In this document: positions 1-5,979 of the stretch, piece after piece | How the letters are laid out: each line of letters starts with the position of its first letter | Position numbering within the stretch: position 1 is the stretch's first letter | IMG/VR virus record: IMGVR_UViG_2711768010_000002 | Direction: 5' to 3' (one strand) | DNA: 6,426 nucleotides | Source of the DNA: a virus | Lineage: Duplodnaviria > Heunggongvirae > Uroviricota > Caudoviricetes | Position numbers and translations under genes: made by a program | Notes under the pieces: generated by a model | The model's input: only the letters and a program-made list of their open reading frames with translations | What the model was told of the DNA's origin: nothing | Database searches by the model: none

Positions 1-1019
1 TTAATGACAGCGGTGCGGCGCTGGGATATTACGTCAGCGAGGACGGCTATCCTGGCTGGATGCCGCAGAAATGGACATGGATACCCCGTGAGTTACCCGG
101 CGGGCGCGCCTCGTTCATTCACGTTTTTGAACCCGTGGAGGACGGGCAGACCCGCGGTGCAAATGTGTTTTACAGCGTAATGGAGCAGATGAAGATGCTC
201 GACACGCTGCAGAACACGCAGCTGCAGAGCGCCATTGTGAAGGCGATGTATGCCGCCACCATTGAAAGTGAGCTGGATACGCAGTCAGCGATGGATTTTA
301 TTCTGGGCGCGAACAGTAAGGAGCAGCGGGAAAGGCTGACGGGCTGGATTGGTGAAATTGCCGCGTATTACGCCGCAGCACCGGTCCGTCTGGGAGGCGC
401 AAAAGTGCCGCACCTGATGCCGGGGGACTCACTGAACCTGCAGACGGCTCAGGACACGGATAACGGCTACTCCGTGTTTGAGCAGTCACTGTTGCGGTAT
501 ATCGCTGCCGGGCTGGGTGTCTCGTATGAGCAACTTTCCCGGAATTACGCCCAGATGAGCTACTCCACGGCACGGGCCAGTGCGAACGAGTCGTGGGCGT
601 ACTTTATGGGGCGGCGAAAATTCGTCGCATCCCGTCAGGCGAGCCAGATGTTTCTGTGCTGGCTGGAAGAGGCCATCGTTCGCCGCGTGGTGACGTTACC
701 TTCAAAAGCGCGCTTCAGTTTTCAGGAAGCCCGCAGTGCCTGGGGGAACTGCGACTGGATAGGCTCCGGTCGTATGGCCATCGATGGTCTGAAAGAAGTT
801 CAGGAAGCGGTGATGCTGATAGAAGCCGGACTGAGCACCTACGAGAAAGAGTGCGCGAAACGCGGTGACGACTATCAGGAAATTTTTGCCCAGCAGGTCC
901 GTGAAACGATGGAGCGCCGCGCAGCTGGTCTTAAACCGCCCGCCTGGGCGGCTGCGGCATTTGAATCCGGGCTGCGACAATCAACAGAGGAGGAGAAGAG
1001 TGACAGCAGAGCTGCGTAA
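1..1019 (+). CDS. B: Portal protein, C-terminal ~339 codons (5' partial; gene begins upstream of the window)
   Basis: Frame 3 is open from the window edge (no stop between nt 3 and the ATG at 60) to TAA at 1017-1019. The translation (...MPQKWTWIPRELPGGRASFIHVFEPVEDGQTRGANVFYSVMEQMKML...) matches my recollection of the lambda gpB C-terminal region. The ATG at 60 used by the ORF track is an internal Met, not the true start. Confidence 0.93.
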   Translation, partial: NDSGAALGYYVSEDGYPGWMPQKWTWIPRELPGGRASFIHVFEPVEDGQTRGANVFYSVMEQMKMLDTLQNTQLQSAIVKAMYAATIESELDTQSAMDFILGANSKEQRERLTGWIGEIAAYYAAAPVRLGGAKVPHLMPGDSLNLQTAQDTDNGYSVFEQSLLRYIAAGLGVSYEQLSRNYAQMSYSTARASANESWAYFMGRRKFVASRQASQMFLCWLEEAIVRRVVTLPSKARFSFQEARSAWGNCDWIGSGRMAIDGLKEVQEAVMLIEAGLSTYEKECAKRGDDYQEIFAQQVRETMERRAAGLKPPAWAAAAFESGLRQSTEEEKSDSRAA

Positions 1020-2319
1020 TCTCCCGCATATTGCCAGCATGGCCTTTAATGAGCCGCTGATGCTTGAACCCGCCTATGCGCGGGTTTTCTTTTGTGCGCT
1101 TGCAGGCCAGCTTGGGATCAGCTGCCTGACGGATGCAGTATCCGGCGACAGCCTGACTGCCGGAGAGGCACCCGCGGCGCTGGCGTTATCCGGTGATGAT
1201 GACGGACCACGACAGGCCCGCAGTTATCAGGTAATGAACGGCATCGCCGTGCTGCCGGTGTCCGGCACGCTGGTCAGCCGGACGCGGGCGCTGCAGCCGT
1301 ACTCGGGGATGACCGGTTACAACGGCATTATCGCCCGTCTGCAACAGGCTGCCAGCGACCCGATGGTGGACGGCATTCTGCTCGATATGGACACACCGGG
1401 CGGAATGGTGGCGGGAGCATTTGACTGCGCTGACATCATCGCCCGTGTGCGTGACATAAAGCCGGTATGGGCGCTGGCCAATGACATGAACTGCAGCGCA
1501 GGTCAGCTGCTTGCCAGTGCCGCCTCCCGGCGTCTGGTCACGCAGACCGCCCGGACAGGCTCCATCGGCGTCATGATGGCTCACAGTAATTACGGCGCTG
1601 CACTGGAGAAACAGGGCGTGGAAATCACGCTGATTTACAGCGGCAGCCATAAGGTGGATGGCAACCCCTACAGCCATCTACCGGATGACGTCCGGGAAAC
1701 ACTGCAGTCCCGGATGGATGCAACCCGCCGGATGTTTGCACAGAAGGTGTCGGCATATACCGGCCTGTCCGTGCAGGCTGTGCTGGATACCGAGGCTGCA
1801 GTGTACAGCGGTCAGGAGGCCATTGATGCCGGACTGGCTGATGAACTTGTTAACAGTACCGATGCGATCACCGTCATGCGTGATGCACTGGATGCACGTA
1901 AATCCCGTCTCTCAGGAGGGCGAATGACCAAAGAGACTCAATCAACAACTGTTTCAGCCACTGCTTCGCAGGCTGACGTTACTGGCGTGGTGCAAGCGAC
2001 GGAGGGCGAGAACGCCAGCGCGGCGCAGCCGGACGTGAACGCGCAGATCACCGCAGCGGTTGCGGCAGAAAACAGTCGCATTATGGGGATCCTCAACTGT
2101 GAGGAGGCTCACGGACGCGAAGAACAGGCACGCGTGCTGGCCGAAACCCCCGGTATGACCGTGGAAACGGCCCGCCGTATTCTGGCCGCAGCACCACAGA
2201 GTGCACAGACGCGCAGTGACACTGCGCTGGATCGTCTGATGCAGGGGGCACCGGCACCGCTGGCTGCAGGTAACCCGGCATCTGATGCCGTTAACGATTT
2301 GCTGAACACACCAGTGTAA
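1000..2319 (+). CDS. C: Prohead (capsid maturation) protease C, ClpP/SppA-like serine protease; 439 codons
   Basis: GTG start at 1000-1002 preceded by GAGGAGGAG (987-995); translation VTAELRNLPHIASMAFNEPLMLEPAYARVFF... to TAA at 2317-2319. Length 1320 nt equals lambda gene C. The upstream ATG at 865 in the ORF track gives an Arg-rich N-terminus lying inside the portal gene in another frame and lacks an SD, so it is rejected as the start. Confidence 0.92.
   Translation: MTAELRNLPHIASMAFNEPLMLEPAYARVFFCALAGQLGISCLTDAVSGDSLTAGEAPAALALSGDDDGPRQARSYQVMNGIAVLPVSGTLVSRTRALQPYSGMTGYNGIIARLQQAASDPMVDGILLDMDTPGGMVAGAFDCADIIARVRDIKPVWALANDMNCSAGQLLASAASRRLVTQTARTGSIGVMMAHSNYGAALEKQGVEITLIYSGSHKVDGNPYSHLPDDVRETLQSRMDATRRMFAQKVSAYTGLSVQAVLDTEAAVYSGQEAIDAGLADELVNSTDAITVMRDALDARKSRLSGGRMTKETQSTTVSATASQADVTGVVQATEGENASAAQPDVNAQITAAVAAENSRIMGILNCEEAHGREEQARVLAETPGMTVETARRILAAAPQSAQTRSDTALDRLMQGAPAPLAAGNPASDAVNDLLNTPV
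1924..2319 (+). CDS. Nu3: Capsid scaffolding protein Nu3, translated from an internal in-frame start within C (shares the C-terminus of C)
   Basis: In-frame ATG at 1924-1926 preceded by a strong SD AGGAGG (1914-1919, 4-nt spacer); product MTKETQSTTVSATASQADVTGVV...NDLLNTPV, 131 aa, Ala/Gln-rich, consistent with a scaffold. Start is ambiguous: other in-frame ATGs at 1714 (MDATRR..., no obvious SD) and 1876 exist; some lambda annotations may use the 1714-equivalent start. Confidence 0.72.
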   Translation: MTKETQSTTVSATASQADVTGVVQATEGENASAAQPDVNAQITAAVAAENSRIMGILNCEEAHGREEQARVLAETPGMTVETARRILAAAPQSAQTRSDTALDRLMQGAPAPLAAGNPASDAVNDLLNTPV

Positions 2320-2328
2320 GGGATGTTT

Positions 2329-2502
2329 ATGACGAGCAAAGAAACCTTTACCCATTACCAGCCGCTGGGCAACAGTGACCCGGCTCATACCGCAACCGCG
2401 CCCGGCGGATTGAGTGCGAAAGCGCCTGCAATGACCCCGCTGATGCTGGACACCTCCACCCGTAAGCTGGTTGCGTGGGATGGCACCACCGACGGTGCTG
2501 CC
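2329..2502 (+). CDS. D: Head decoration protein D, N-terminal 58 codons (3' end lost in N run)
   Basis: ATG at 2329 with AAGGGA 5 nt upstream; translation [58 protein letters not shown] matches lambda gpD N-terminus. ATG at 2323 (MFMTSK) is an alternative 2 codons upstream. Runs into N run at 2503. Confidence 0.9.
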
Positions 2503-2575
2503 NNNNNNNNNNNNNNNNNNNNNNNNNNNNNNNNNNNNNNNNNNNNNNNNNNNNNNNNNNNNNNNNNNNNNNNNN
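2503..2575. other. Run of 73 N (masked or gap sequence) covering the 3' half of D, the D-E spacer and the first ~11 codons of E
   Basis: Literal n characters. By my count the lambda-equivalent segment would be about 245 nt, so the N-run length does not represent true length. Confidence 0.99.
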
Positions 2576-3416
2576 CGGCAAATGAGCAGAAATTTAAGTT
2601 TGATCCGCTGTTTCTGCGTCTCTTTTTCCGTGAGAGCTATCCCTTCACCACGGAGAAAGTCTATCTCTCACAAATTCCGGGACTGGTAAACATGGCGCTG
2701 TACGTTTCGCCGATTGTTTCCGGTGAGGTTATCCGTTCCCGTGGCGGCTCCACCTCTGAATTTACGCCGGGATATGTCAAACCCAAGCATGAGGTGAATC
2801 CGCAGATGACCCTGCGTCGCCTGCCGGATGAAGATCCGCAGAATCTGGCGGACCCGGCTTACCGCCGCCGTCGCATCATCATGCAGAACATGCGTGACGA
2901 AGAGCTGGCCATTGCTCAGGTCGAAGAGATGCAGGCAGTTTCTGCCGTGCTCAAGGGCAAATACACCATGACCGGTGAAGCCTTCGATCCGGTTGAGGTG
3001 GATATGGGCCGCAGTGCGGCGAACAACATCACGCAGTCCGGCGGTACGGAGTGGAGCAAGCGTGACAAGTCCACGTATGACCCGACCGACGATATCGAAG
3101 CCTACGCGCTGAACGCCAGCGGTGTGGTGAATATCATCGTGTTTGACCCGAAAGGCTGGGCGCTGTTCCGTTCCTTCAAAGCCGTCAAGGAGAAGCTGGA
3201 TACCCGTCGCGGCTCTCATTCCGAGCTGGAGACAGCGGTAAAAGACCTGGGCAAAGCGGTGTCCTATAAGGGAATGTATGGCGATGTGGCCATCGTCGTG
3301 TATTCCGGACAGTACGTGGAAAACGGCGTCAAAAAGAACTTCCTGCCGGACAACACGATGGTGCTGGGGAACACTCAGGCTCGCGGTCTGCGCACCTATG
3401 GCTGCATTCAGGATGC
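2576..3416 (+). CDS. E: Major capsid protein E (HK97-fold family), internal fragment; both ends lost in N runs
   Basis: Translation from 2578: ANEQKFKFDPLFLRLFFRESYPFTTEKVYLSQIPGLVNMALYVSPIVSGEVIRSRGG...GLRTYGCIQDA matches lambda gpE from about residue 12 to about residue 291 of 341. Bounded by N runs at 2503-2575 and 3417-3682. Confidence 0.93.
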
Positions 3417-3682
3417 NNNNNNNNNNNNNNNNNNNNNNNNNNNNNNNNNNNNNNNNNNNNNNNNNNNNNNNNNNNNNNNNNNNNNNNNNNNNNNNNNNNN
3501 NNNNNNNNNNNNNNNNNNNNNNNNNNNNNNNNNNNNNNNNNNNNNNNNNNNNNNNNNNNNNNNNNNNNNNNNNNNNNNNNNNNNNNNNNNNNNNNNNNNN
3601 NNNNNNNNNNNNNNNNNNNNNNNNNNNNNNNNNNNNNNNNNNNNNNNNNNNNNNNNNNNNNNNNNNNNNNNNNNNNNNNNNN
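3417..3682. other. Run of 266 N covering the last ~50 codons of E, the E-FI spacer and the first ~15 codons of FI
   Basis: Literal n characters. Lambda-equivalent segment about 240 nt by my count; the flanking frames differ (E frame 1, FI frame 2). Confidence 0.99.
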
Positions 3683-4036
3683 CAATTGAACCGCGATGTC
3701 AGTTTGACGGGAACGAAAGAAGAACTGGCGCTTCGTGTGGCAGAGCTGGAAGAAGAGCTTGATGACACGGATGAAACTGCCGGTCAGGACACCCCTCTCA
3801 GCCGGGAAAATGTGCTGACCGGGCATGAAAATGAGGTGGTATCAGCGCAGCCGGATACCGTGATTCAGGATACGGCTGAACTGGTCACGGTCGTGGCACT
3901 GGTGACGCTGCATACTGATGCACTTCACGCCACGCGGGATAAACCTGTGGCATTTGTGCTGCCGGGAACGGCGTTTCGTGTCTCTGCCGGTGTGGCAGCC
4001 GAAATGACAGAGCGCGGCCTGGCCAGAATGCAATAA
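3683..4036 (+). CDS. FI: DNA packaging / head assembly protein FI, C-terminal 117 codons (5' end lost in N run)
   Basis: Frame 2 after the N run: QLNRDVSLTGTKEELALRVAELEEELDDTDETAGQDTPLSRENVLTGHENE...AAEMTERGLARMQ, stop TAA 4034-4036; matches lambda gpFI from about residue 16. This is a different frame from E, so the 2323-3762 ORF in the track is a gap artefact. Confidence 0.9.
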   Translation, partial: QLNRDVSLTGTKEELALRVAELEEELDDTDETAGQDTPLSRENVLTGHENEVVSAQPDTVIQDTAELVTVVALVTLHTDALHATRDKPVAFVLPGTAFRVSAGVAAEMTERGLARMQ

Positions 4037-4047
4037 CGGGAGGCGCT

Positions 4048-4401
4048 GTGGCTGATTTCGATAACCTGTTCGATGCTGCCATTGCCCGCGCCGATGAAAC
4101 GATACGCGGGTACATGGGAACGTCAGCCACCATGACATCCGGTGAGCAGTCAGGTGCGGTGATACGTGGTGTTTTTGATGACCCTGAAAATATCAGCTAT
4201 GCCGGACAGGGCGTGCGCGTTGAAGGCTCCAGCCCGTCCCTGTTTGTCCGGACTGATGAGGTGCGGCAGCTGCGGCGTGGAGACACGCTGACCATCGGTG
4301 AGGAAAATTTCTGGGTAGATCGGGTTTCGCCGGATGATGGCGGAAGTTGTCATCTCTGGCTTGGACGGGGCGTACCGCCTGCCGTTAACCGTCGCCGCTG
4401 A
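4048..4401 (+). CDS. FII: Head-tail joining (head completion) protein FII, 117 codons
   Basis: GTG start at 4048 with SD GGGAGG (4038-4043); MADFDNLFDAAIARADETIRGYMGTSATMTSGEQSGAVIRGVFDDPENISYAGQGVRVEG... to TGA 4399-4401. Length 354 nt equals lambda FII. Confidence 0.93.
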   Translation: MADFDNLFDAAIARADETIRGYMGTSATMTSGEQSGAVIRGVFDDPENISYAGQGVRVEGSSPSLFVRTDEVRQLRRGDTLTIGEENFWVDRVSPDDGGSCHLWLGRGVPPAVNRRR

Positions 4402-4412
4402 AAGGGGGATGT

Positions 4413-4775
4413 ATGGCCATAAAAGGTCTTGAGCAGGCCGTTGAAAACCTCAGCCGTATCAGCAAAACGGCGGTGCCCGGTGCCGCCGCAATGGCCATTA
4501 ACCGCGTTGCTTCATCCGCGATATCGCAGTCTGCGTCACAGGTTGCCCGTGAGACAAAGGTACGCCGGAAACTGGTAAAGGAAAGGGCCAGGCTGAAAAG
4601 GGCCACGGTCAAAAATCCGCAGGCCAGAATCAAAGTTAACCGGGGGGATTTGCCCGTAATCAAGCTGGGTAATGCGCGGGTTGTCCTGTCCCGCCGCAGG
4701 CGTCATAAAAAGGGGCAGCGTTCATCCCTGAAAGGTGGCGGCAGCGTGCTTGTGGTGGGTAACCGTCGTATTCCC
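4413..4775 (+). CDS. Z: Tail completion protein Z, N-terminal 121 codons (3' end lost in N run)
   Basis: ATG at 4413 with G-rich SD AAGGGGG (4402-4408); MAIKGLEQAVENLSRISKTAVPGAAAMAINRVASSAISQSASQVARETKVRRKLVKERARL...VVGNRRIP matches lambda gpZ. Runs into N run at 4776. Confidence 0.9.
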
Positions 4776-4871
4776 NNNNNNNNNNNNNNNNNNNNNNNNN
4801 NNNNNNNNNNNNNNNNNNNNNNNNNNNNNNNNNNNNNNNNNNNNNNNNNNNNNNNNNNNNNNNNNNNNNNN
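4776..4871. other. Run of 96 N covering the 3' ~71 codons of Z and the first ~12 codons of U (including the Z/U junction)
   Basis: Literal n characters. Lambda-equivalent segment about 248 nt by my count; the 96-nt run happens to keep phase, so the track fuses Z and U into one 272-aa ORF. Confidence 0.99.
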
Positions 4872-5231
4872 GCACTGGAGAAGCATGACACCGGGGCGAC
4901 GCTTTTTGATGGTCGCCCCGCTGTTTTTGATGAGGAAGATTTTCCGGCAATTGCCGTTTATCTCACCGGCGCTGAATACACGGGCGAAGAGCTGGACAGC
5001 GATACCTGGCAGGCGGAGCTGCATATTGAAGTTTTCCTGCCTGCTCAGGTGCCGGATTCAGAGCTGGATTCGTGGATGGAGTCCCGGATTTATCCTGTGA
5101 TGAGCGATATCCCGGCACTGTCAGATTTGATCACCAGTATGGTGGCCAGCGGCTATGACTACCGGCGCGACGATGATGCGGGCCTGTGGAGTTCAGCCGA
5201 TCTGACTTATGTCATTATCTATGAAATGTGA
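4872..5231 (+). CDS. U: Tail tube terminator protein U, C-terminal 119 codons (5' end lost in N run)
   Basis: After the N run in the same phase: [119 protein letters not shown], stop TGA 5229-5231; matches lambda gpU from about residue 13 of 131. Confidence 0.9.
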
Positions 5232-5238
5232 GGACGCT

Positions 5239-5979
5239 ATGCCTGTACCAAATCCTACAATGCCGGTGAAAGGTGCCGGGACCACCCTGTGGGTTTATAA
5301 GGGGAGCGGTGACCCTTATGCGAACCCGCTTTCAGACGTTGACTGGTCGCGTCTGGCAAAAGTTAAAGACCTGACGCCCGGCGAACTGACCGCTGAGTCC
5401 TATGACGACAGCTATCTCGATGATGAAGATGCAGACTGGACTGCGACCGGGCAGGGGCAGAAATCTGCCGGAGATACCAGCTTCACGCTGGCGTGGATGC
5501 CCGGAGAGCAGGGGCAGCAGGCGCTGCTGGCGTGGTTTAATGAAGGTGATACCCGTGCCTATAAAATCCGCTTCCCGAACGGCACGGTCGATGTGTTCCG
5601 TGGCTGGGTCAGCAGTATCGGTAAGGCGGTGACGGCGAAGGAGGTGATTACCCGCACGGTGAAGGTCACCAATGTGGGACGTCCGTCGATGGCAGAAGAT
5701 CGCAGCACGGTGACGGCGACGACCGGCATGACGGTGACACCCGCCAGTGCTTCCGTAGTGAAAGGGCAGAGCACCACGCTGACCGTGGCATTCCAGCCGG
5801 ATGGCGCAACCGACAAGAGCTTCCGTGCGGTGTCTGCGGATAAAACAAAAGCCACCGTGTCGGTCAGTGGTATGACCATCACCGTGAAAGGTGTTGCTGC
5901 AGGCAAGGTCAACATTCCGGTCGTATCTGGTAATGGTGAGTTTGCTGCGGTTGCAGAAATCAACGTCACCGCCAGTTAA
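5239..5979 (+). CDS. V: Major tail tube protein V with C-terminal Ig-like (Big_2-type) domain, 246 codons
   Basis: ATG at 5239 with GAGGA (5230-5234); [45 protein letters not shown]... to TAA 5977-5979; 741 nt equals lambda V. The ORF-track start at 5209 ([10 protein letters not shown]) lies inside U in another frame and is rejected. C-terminal ~80 residues ([79 protein letters not shown]) have the Thr/Val/Ser-rich beta-strand pattern of a Big_2 Ig-like domain. Confidence 0.95.

Follow-up and report, generated by a model that had tools for sequence, protein, structure and literature searches.

Within the head protease gene C of lambda-type phages, at which codon does the nested scaffolding protein Nu3 begin? 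The existence of a nested C/Nu3 pair is textbook lambda biology and is already known. The two are treated as overlapping genes in the title of a 1980 genetics paper (Shaw & Murialdo 1980), and excerpts from the literature describe Nu3 as an essential lambda scaffold that overlaps C and state that lambda encodes the protease and the scaffold in one gene. The overlap is a classic case of nested in-frame genes, by which the virus places its maturation protease inside a shell that is later cleared. Here, we investigate the start of the short form in a phage head gene module, using the sequence of the locus, its homologues and the records in which it is annotated.

The locus is a lambda-type head module containing C with a C-terminal scaffold domain

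The window (the whole stretch of DNA that was analyzed, 6,426 bases) is a lambda-type head and tail morphogenesis module. It runs from the 3' end of portal gene B through C/Nu3, D, E, FI, FII, Z, U, V, and G, so that C/Nu3 is flanked by the portal gene on one side and by the genes for the decoration and major capsid proteins on the other. Window positions 1 to 2502 align with lambda 3419 to 5920 at 97.7% nucleotide identity with zero indels, and a lambda coordinate equals the window coordinate plus 3418. B extends to 1019 and D begins at 2329, with E and the tail genes beyond it; the whole is colinear with lambda apart from runs of N. All of the features described below lie on the + strand. 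C was matched by 80 phage records at 95 to 99% identity, and the identical 439-aa C protein has been recorded on at least 1000 contigs from Shigella and other Enterobacteriaceae. Roughly 950 S49 prohead protease homologues of greater distance were seen among phage genomes. The DNA therefore most likely derives from a lambdoid prophage.

Gene C (1000 to 2319) encodes the full-length head protease with its C-terminal scaffold domain, a protein of 439 aa read from a GTG start to a TAA stop at 2317 to 2319. The gene is colinear with lambda C (4418 to 5737) without indels, and its start therefore was placed at GTG 1000 rather than at the GTG at 865 given in the mechanical ORF list. The first 20 nt of C overlap the 3' end of B. 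The Shine-Dalgarno (SD) sequence of C, GAGGAGGAG (987 to 995), ends 4 nt 5' of GTG 1000, as it does at lambda 4418, and its duplex with the anti-SD sequence (-12.0 kcal/mol) is the strongest in the gene.

The C protein matched PHROG 53, "head maturation protease," with an E value of 3e-185. A phmmer search against PDB identified an S49/SppA-like protease fold in C residues 81 to 298 (1240 to 1893; SppA structures 3rst and 4kwb, E=1e-21), and the Pfam family Peptidase_S49 (PF01343) matched residues 150 to 297 (E=8e-44). In the alignment with SppA, Ser166 occupies the position of the serine in the "AASGG" motif. The N-terminal part of C is thus a prohead protease domain of the S49 (SppA/ClpP-clan) type, and its C-terminal extension is homologous to lambda Nu3 (about 98% nucleotide identity, PHROG 8399). 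The initial annotation of this DNA had identified the gene as C with Nu3 nested in its 3' third, and this identification is borne out by the identity of about 98% and the colinearity with lambda; the nested part takes up 396 of the 1320 nt, or 30%, of C.

A strong ribosome-binding site precedes an in-frame ATG at the end of the protease domain

The Nu3 reading frame that was proposed in the initial annotation (1924 to 2319) comprises 131 codons plus the stop. It lies in the C frame, ends in the C terminus that is common to both proteins, and starts at Met309 of C. The internal SD sequence AGGAGG (1914 to 1919) is spelled by the end of the Ser305 codon and the codons of Gly306 and Gly307 (TCA GGA GGG), and GCGA separates it from ATG 1924. 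The resulting 4-nt spacer is at the short end of the usual range, which counts against 1924. Both elements were present where they had been placed, and the two other ATGs that had been named, at 1714 and 1876, also lie in the frame that ends at TAA 2317 to 2319. A further in-frame ATG at 1732 (Met245) and several in-frame GTGs had been absent from that list.

The anti-SD duplex was scored at all 37 in-frame ATG, GTG, and TTG codons of C. A strong duplex was obtained at only 2 of these, GTG 1000 and ATG 1924 (-10.8 kcal/mol). All other codons gave -6.4 kcal/mol or weaker, with values of -3.8 kcal/mol at 1714 and +0.3 kcal/mol at 1876, corroborating the earlier view that 1924 has by far the best ribosome-binding site of the three ATGs. 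Across the window, AGGAGG followed after 3 to 9 nt by ATG was observed twice against an expectation of 0.34, the second copy (ATG 1826) being out of frame. The window's least structured 40-nt segments of C are centered at 1852 to 1864 and at 1933 to 1951, flanking the start at 1924. An in-frame internal start with its own ribosome-binding site is therefore found at the boundary between protease and scaffold.

Positions 1500 to 2400 were also searched for a sigma-70-like promoter and for Rfam RNA families, and neither was found in this interval. The best explanation for the short form is therefore translation from a ribosome-binding site internal to the late mRNA. A special RNA structure presenting the SD sequence was sought as well, and the 71-nt region folded no better than shuffled sequences (z = +0.34). 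A weak 6-bp hairpin has the SD sequence and AUG of 1924 in its loop, and we regard this as a chance occurrence.

The boundary start is conserved among C homologues

In order to compare the start across the family, 80 C-homologue loci from bacterial genomes, phage 21, and lambda were reduced to 51 sequences with pairwise identities below 95%. These are 35 to 100% identical to the window and are mutually related, so that the counts given here are not counts of independent events. All 51 homologues have an in-frame ATG no more than 6 codons from the Met309 column. An SD duplex of -6 kcal/mol or better was found at this ATG in 46 of the 51 and a weak SD sequence in the remaining 5; as background, a site of this strength occurs in 1.9% of the remaining 13-codon windows of these genes. 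The Met309-column start ranks first among the internal starts in 30 of the 51 genes and within the top four in 46. It lies just past the protease domain, Met309 being 11 residues beyond the end of the S49 fold at residue 298.

Further inspection of the aligned nucleotides revealed that GGAG at positions -9 to -6 of the boundary ATG carries 0.8 to 1.5 bits, compared with 0.1 to 0.4 bits at the flanking positions (51 homologues). Of 38 glycine codons located three codons 5' of the ATG, 36 are GGA, which is otherwise the rarest glycine codon in these genes (171/1817, 9.4%). The residue that follows this glycine is Gly, Ala, or Val, and the first base of its codon stays G. Because GGAG is kept in an otherwise variable linker, with a bias toward GGA and with the first-base G retained, selection at the 1924 site acts on the nucleotides rather than on the amino acids. 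Folding and base composition change at the same place. Centered on the boundary ATG, the 51 genes show on average a rise in 40-nt folding energy (about -9.5 to about -4.5 kcal/mol) and a drop in GC content (0.60 to 0.45). Such a combined dip in structure and GC content is what translation initiation regions usually show. The sequence features of the internal initiation site, its homology, its place at the domain boundary, and its evolutionary conservation are all direct observations.

The out-of-frame AGGAGG (1814 to 1819) and its ATG at 1826 open a small ORF of 33 codons in the +1 frame, the TGA of which overlaps ATG 1924 as ATGA. Translational coupling through this ORF was considered and rejected, as a comparable out-of-frame ORF was found in 2 of the 51 homologues. 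The AGGAGG at 1814 is accounted for by conserved Gly-Gln-Glu codons of the protease domain.

Database records place the lambda nu3 start at 1714

The initial annotation had suggested a comparison with curated lambda Nu3 records, and this did not return the codon that it preferred. GenBank J02459 and RefSeq NC_001416 give nu3 as 5132 to 5737 (201 aa), equivalent to window 1714 to 2319, with the start at the in-frame ATG (Met239) at 1714 to 1716 (lambda 5132) and not at 1924 (lambda 5342). Lambda carries the same SD sequence, spacer, and ATG as the window at 5332 to 5344. The start at lambda 5132 has been copied into phage 434, HK629, HK630, lambda hybrids, and other records. Among the lambda-like records listed, no nested gene confined to the region 3' of 1924 is annotated, and all of the nested features extend over 1730 to 1900. 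In the expert-annotated phage 434 record, the CDS that uses the 5132-equivalent start bears a note opening with "real Nu3 start ...," which suggests that the annotators knew that the 5132-type coordinate is not the true start.

The protein family databases hold both lengths. C residues 309 to 439 are matched from end to end (E=1e-78) by the 131 positions of PHROG 8399, "head scaffolding protein," and PHROG 8940 is a family of 201 positions. A full-text search of the accessible literature for a statement of the Nu3 start codon, or for N-terminal sequencing, mass spectrometry, or initiation profiling of Nu3, found none.

ATG 1924 is favored over the alternative origins of the short form

If Nu3 started at ATG 1714, the product would have 201 aa and a mass of 20.8 kDa, and the SD sequence at 1914 would be incidental. 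This start has the authority of the two lambda reference records and their copies, and the PHROG 8940 profile is of matching length. Nu3 presumably runs at roughly 19 to 20 kDa on SDS gels, which would have motivated the assignment. However, the SD sequence at 1714 is weak and badly spaced (-3.8 kcal/mol), and no dip in structure or GC content is seen there. Met239 is kept in just 4 of the 51 homologues. At this position, 21 homologues have Ile, 13 have Thr, and 6 have Ser, and the 47 homologues without Met, which include phage 21 (Ile), have Ile, Thr, Ser, Leu, Val, or Ala. The 201-aa model thus has neither a conserved start codon nor a usable ribosome-binding site. Moreover, because Met239 lies inside the S49 fold, its product would begin with an orphan protease fragment of about 60 residues, an incomplete domain made up of the last 59 to 60 residues of the fold. 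Taken with the "real Nu3 start ..." note in the phage 434 record, which uses this same start, these observations indicate that 1714 probably is not the real Nu3 start, and we consider this assignment unlikely. The use of several starts, with 1714, 1924, and possibly 1876 together giving a nested series of scaffold isoforms, seems extremely unlikely. All three are in-frame ATGs, and weak sites could in principle allow leaky initiation, but the strong SD sequence and the comparative conservation are found at 1924 only. Met293 (1876) is kept as Met or Phe within the last helix of the protease fold, and this pattern of conservation points to a structural role rather than to a start.

The short form might also arise with no internal initiation at all, solely through proteolysis of C in the linker, in which case the SD-like sequence would be a pause site or a product of chance. 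C is a protease that carries the entire scaffold sequence, and excerpts from the literature on P2 gpO and MD8 gp5 provide examples of self-processing protease-scaffold fusions. The title of the 1980 paper, in which C and Nu3 are overlapping genes, speaks against this origin. Cleavage alone also leaves unexplained why a conserved Met stands 5 nt past a conserved GGAG, why the glycine codon is biased toward GGA, and why the region is unstructured and low in GC. Early amber mutations in C leave Nu3 function intact. We therefore regard an origin by cleavage alone as very unlikely.

The comparative evidence strongly favors 1924 (lambda 5342) over 1714 (lambda 5132) as the start of Nu3, and the preference for 1924 expressed in the initial annotation gains support from the conservation in 51 homologues, the domain boundary, phage 21, and PHROG 8399. 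We conclude that one reading frame very probably yields two proteins with a common C terminus, gpC from GTG 1000 and gpNu3 from the SD sequence at 1914 to 1919 and ATG 1924.

The product of ATG 1924 is predicted to be helical with a disordered N terminus

Translation from 1924 gives a product of 131 aa with a mass of 13.4 kDa and a pI of 4.4; for the 131-aa product of lambda, a mass of 13,394 Da was calculated. Its composition (27 Ala, 14 Thr, 10 Glu, 10 Val, and 9 Gln) agrees with its earlier description as rich in Ala, Gln, and Thr. That description had also called the protein low in complexity and intrinsically disordered. This fits the first third of the protein, in which residues 1 to 32 are predicted to be disordered, but not residues 38 to 106, for which helices are predicted.

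The regions of Nu3 were delimited with an alignment of 23 scaffold-length homologues (56 to 91% identity), which also was used for AlphaFold2 modeling. The N-terminal segment, residues 1 to about 37 to 40 (1924 to 2034), is hypervariable, rich in Ala, Thr, Ser, Pro, and Gln, and without conserved columns, and pLDDT values are below 50 throughout residues 1 to 32. It is followed by a conserved core, residues 38 to 106 (2035 to 2241), comprised of two predicted helices (38 to 73 and 80 to 106), the first of which reaches a pLDDT of 93. Invariant columns extend from Q41 to about P110, and most of them fall within Q41 to M106. Residues 112 to 131 mostly have pLDDT values below 50, and the overall pTM is 0.29. 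The model predicts Nu3 to be an extended helical protein with a disordered N terminus and no globular fold, a physical character like that of a scaffold. gpNu3 is called intrinsically disordered in the title of Medina 2011 (PMC3247018), and Nu3 is described in excerpts from the literature as largely alpha-helical with disordered regions.

The extreme C terminus common to C and Nu3, DLLNTPV (2296 to 2316), is conserved in the same alignment. L126, N128, T129, and P130 are invariant among the 23 sequences, D125 and V131 are nearly so, and P438 and V439 of C are kept in phage 21. The DLLNTPV tail is a candidate contact site for the capsid protein or the portal.

A model for the expression and assembly of C and Nu3

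According to the proposed mechanism, ribosomes initiating at GTG 1000 would produce gpC (439 aa), in which an S49/SppA-type serine protease is joined by a short linker to the scaffold domain. Ribosomes initiating at AGGAGG 1914 to 1919 and ATG 1924 would produce gpNu3 (131 aa, 13.4 kDa), the scaffold domain alone. The two starts differ in kind. That of C is a GTG within the 20-nt overlap with B, and that of Nu3 is an ATG in an open, AT-richer context. These differences could favor the scaffold and set the Nu3:C ratio. Since the scaffold domain is also part of C, the protease would be expected to be coassembled into the procapsid with Nu3, and once inside the procapsid it could degrade the scaffold before DNA packaging. 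Separate synthesis of the two proteins, their relative amounts, and their coassembly via the shared domain are suggested by established lambda biology and by analogous systems. Excerpts from the literature describe an initiator complex formed by B, C, and Nu3, with C-Nu3 and Nu3-Nu3 interactions, and state that C may degrade Nu3.

Implications for annotation

All of the comparative signals examined put the reference nu3 start 70 codons too early. It is quite likely that the reference nu3 model (5132 to 5737, 201 aa) is wrong by 70 codons, that the error has been copied to many phage and prophage annotations and to a PHROG family, and that a large family of gammaproteobacterial prophage head proteases (35 to 100% identity) has the conserved internal SD-ATG at the S49 boundary as its hallmark. 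If this is true, it amounts at most to a curation correction and a comparative rule, since we believe that the true Nu3 start (131 aa, 13.4 kDa) already is given in the older biochemical literature and in UniProt. What is added here is the evidence for 1924 and the conservation of the boundary SD-ATG over a broad prophage family. Automated annotations of lambda-like prophages mostly omit the nested scaffold or mislabel it. Misleading labels in use include "head-tail preconnector protein Nu3" and the PHROG category "tail." The boundary SD-ATG would be usable for the automatic annotation of nested scaffold genes by a simple calling rule, in which a conserved GGAG-N5-ATG just after the S49 fold marks the scaffold gene in this family of C homologues.

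Comparison with known protease-scaffold systems

In phage Mu, an in-frame internal start within gene I gives rise to the scaffold gpZ, which has its C terminus in common with the protease gpI. The Mu protease belongs to a different family from that of C/Nu3, and we know of no detectable sequence similarity between I/Z and C/Nu3. In the herpesvirus UL26/UL26.5 system, an abundant scaffold likewise is expressed within the protease frame, and the common C terminus directs both proteins into the procapsid. There, the short form has a separate promoter and mRNA in place of an internal ribosome-binding site. The herpesvirus protease is an assemblin, whereas that of the window is of the S49/SppA type, so that the likeness is one of functional analogy only; no promoter-like site for a separate 3'-coterminal transcript was found 5' of 1924 in the search of 1500 to 2400. 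P2 gpO and Pseudomonas phage MD8 gp5 resemble C/Nu3 in combining protease and scaffold in one gene. In the literature excerpts that deal with them, they are described as single processed polypeptides with no separately initiated nested scaffold, and the MD8 gp5 polypeptide is in addition fused to the major capsid protein.

The closest system is lambda C/Nu3 itself, which has the same genes at about 98% nucleotide identity, with no indels and with the same flanking genes B, D, and E. It differs from the window by point substitutions only, such as those changing Nu3 residue 96 from T to A and residue 82 from E to K. Phage 21 (OL657228) shares the S49 protease and the in-frame nested scaffold at 57 to 58% identity, with the protease/scaffold gene at 4406 to 5911 and the nested scaffolding protein at 5309 to 5911. 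Its scaffold has 200 aa because it carries three copies of the conserved Nu3 core and lacks the variable N-terminal segment. The internal SD duplex of phage 21 is -12.0 kcal/mol, and its annotated scaffold start and ribosome-binding site align exactly with Met309 of the window and the preceding Gly-Gly codons.

Results

The GTG start codon of C, the S49-type head protease gene, is located 20 nt inside the 3' end of the portal gene B (window 1000-1019; B ORF, 60-1019). Ahead of this GTG lies a very strong Shine-Dalgarno sequence, GAGGAGGAG. The overlap is identical to that of lambda, in which B occupies 2836-4437 and C occupies 4418-5737.

Upstream of the internal ATG of Nu3, the scaffold read in the C frame, AGGAGG occurs a second time, at 1814-1819, and is followed by an ATG at 1826 that is out of frame. 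The ORF that begins there comprises 33 codons in the +1 frame and ends at a TGA (1925-1927) that overlaps the Nu3 start codon as ATGA. This ORF resembles a coupling leader for Nu3, a role that was considered and rejected; a comparable ORF was found in only 2 of the 51 non-redundant C homologues. The AGGAGG at 1814-1819 is accounted for by the codons for a Gly-Gln-Glu sequence that is conserved in the protease.

Comparison with lambda revealed that the three N-runs of the window are not true to length: the 73 bases at 2503-2575 stand for approximately 245 lambda bases, the 266 at 3417-3682 for approximately 240, and the 96 at 4776-4871 for approximately 248. Because the runs do not preserve length, the window-to-lambda offset changes in steps (3418, 3590, 3564, and 3716), and the ORF list of the window contains artificial fusions, such as a 479-amino-acid "ORF" (2323-3762) in which D is joined to E.

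Product names given in public records to the equivalents of window 1000-2319 were inconsistent and partly misleading. For example, the entire C gene is in some cases annotated as "head-tail preconnector protein Nu3," other names for the C/Nu3 pair include "Phage capsid and scaffold" and, in one Salmonella phage, "tail fiber protein," and the category of PHROG 8940 (the 201-amino-acid nu3 family) is "tail." The record of phage 434 (OL657226; L003/L006) has a nested scaffolding-protein CDS at 5131-5736 with a note containing the words "real Nu3 start"; in its complete form, this note probably gives the experimentally known start.

Sequence 96 to 99% identical to lambda was present in genome contigs (loci L009-L017, L019-L022, L027, L038, and L050) of assemblies labeled Chromatium, Kitasatospora, Shewanella, Pseudomonas, Oceanobacillus, Neobacillus, Akkermansia (a MAG), Enterococcus, and Amycolatopsis, among others. 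Many of these loci lie on contigs that are either approximately 48 kb long or very short, with a coverage value close to 1. They almost certainly represent lambda DNA contamination or spike-in rather than prophages.

Discussion

Scaffolds of the phage 21 type, approximately 200 amino acids long, are found in phage 21 itself (L004, OL657228; scaffold region, 1498-2100) and in loci L045, L048, L049, and L051. They differ from Nu3 in that they are without its variable N-terminal segment and carry its conserved core motif (...IMGIL.C.EA.GRE..A..LA...GMTVE.AR.ILAAAP...) in three tandem copies; PHROG 8399, the 131-position "head scaffolding protein" family, matches the phage 21-type scaffold in three stretches.
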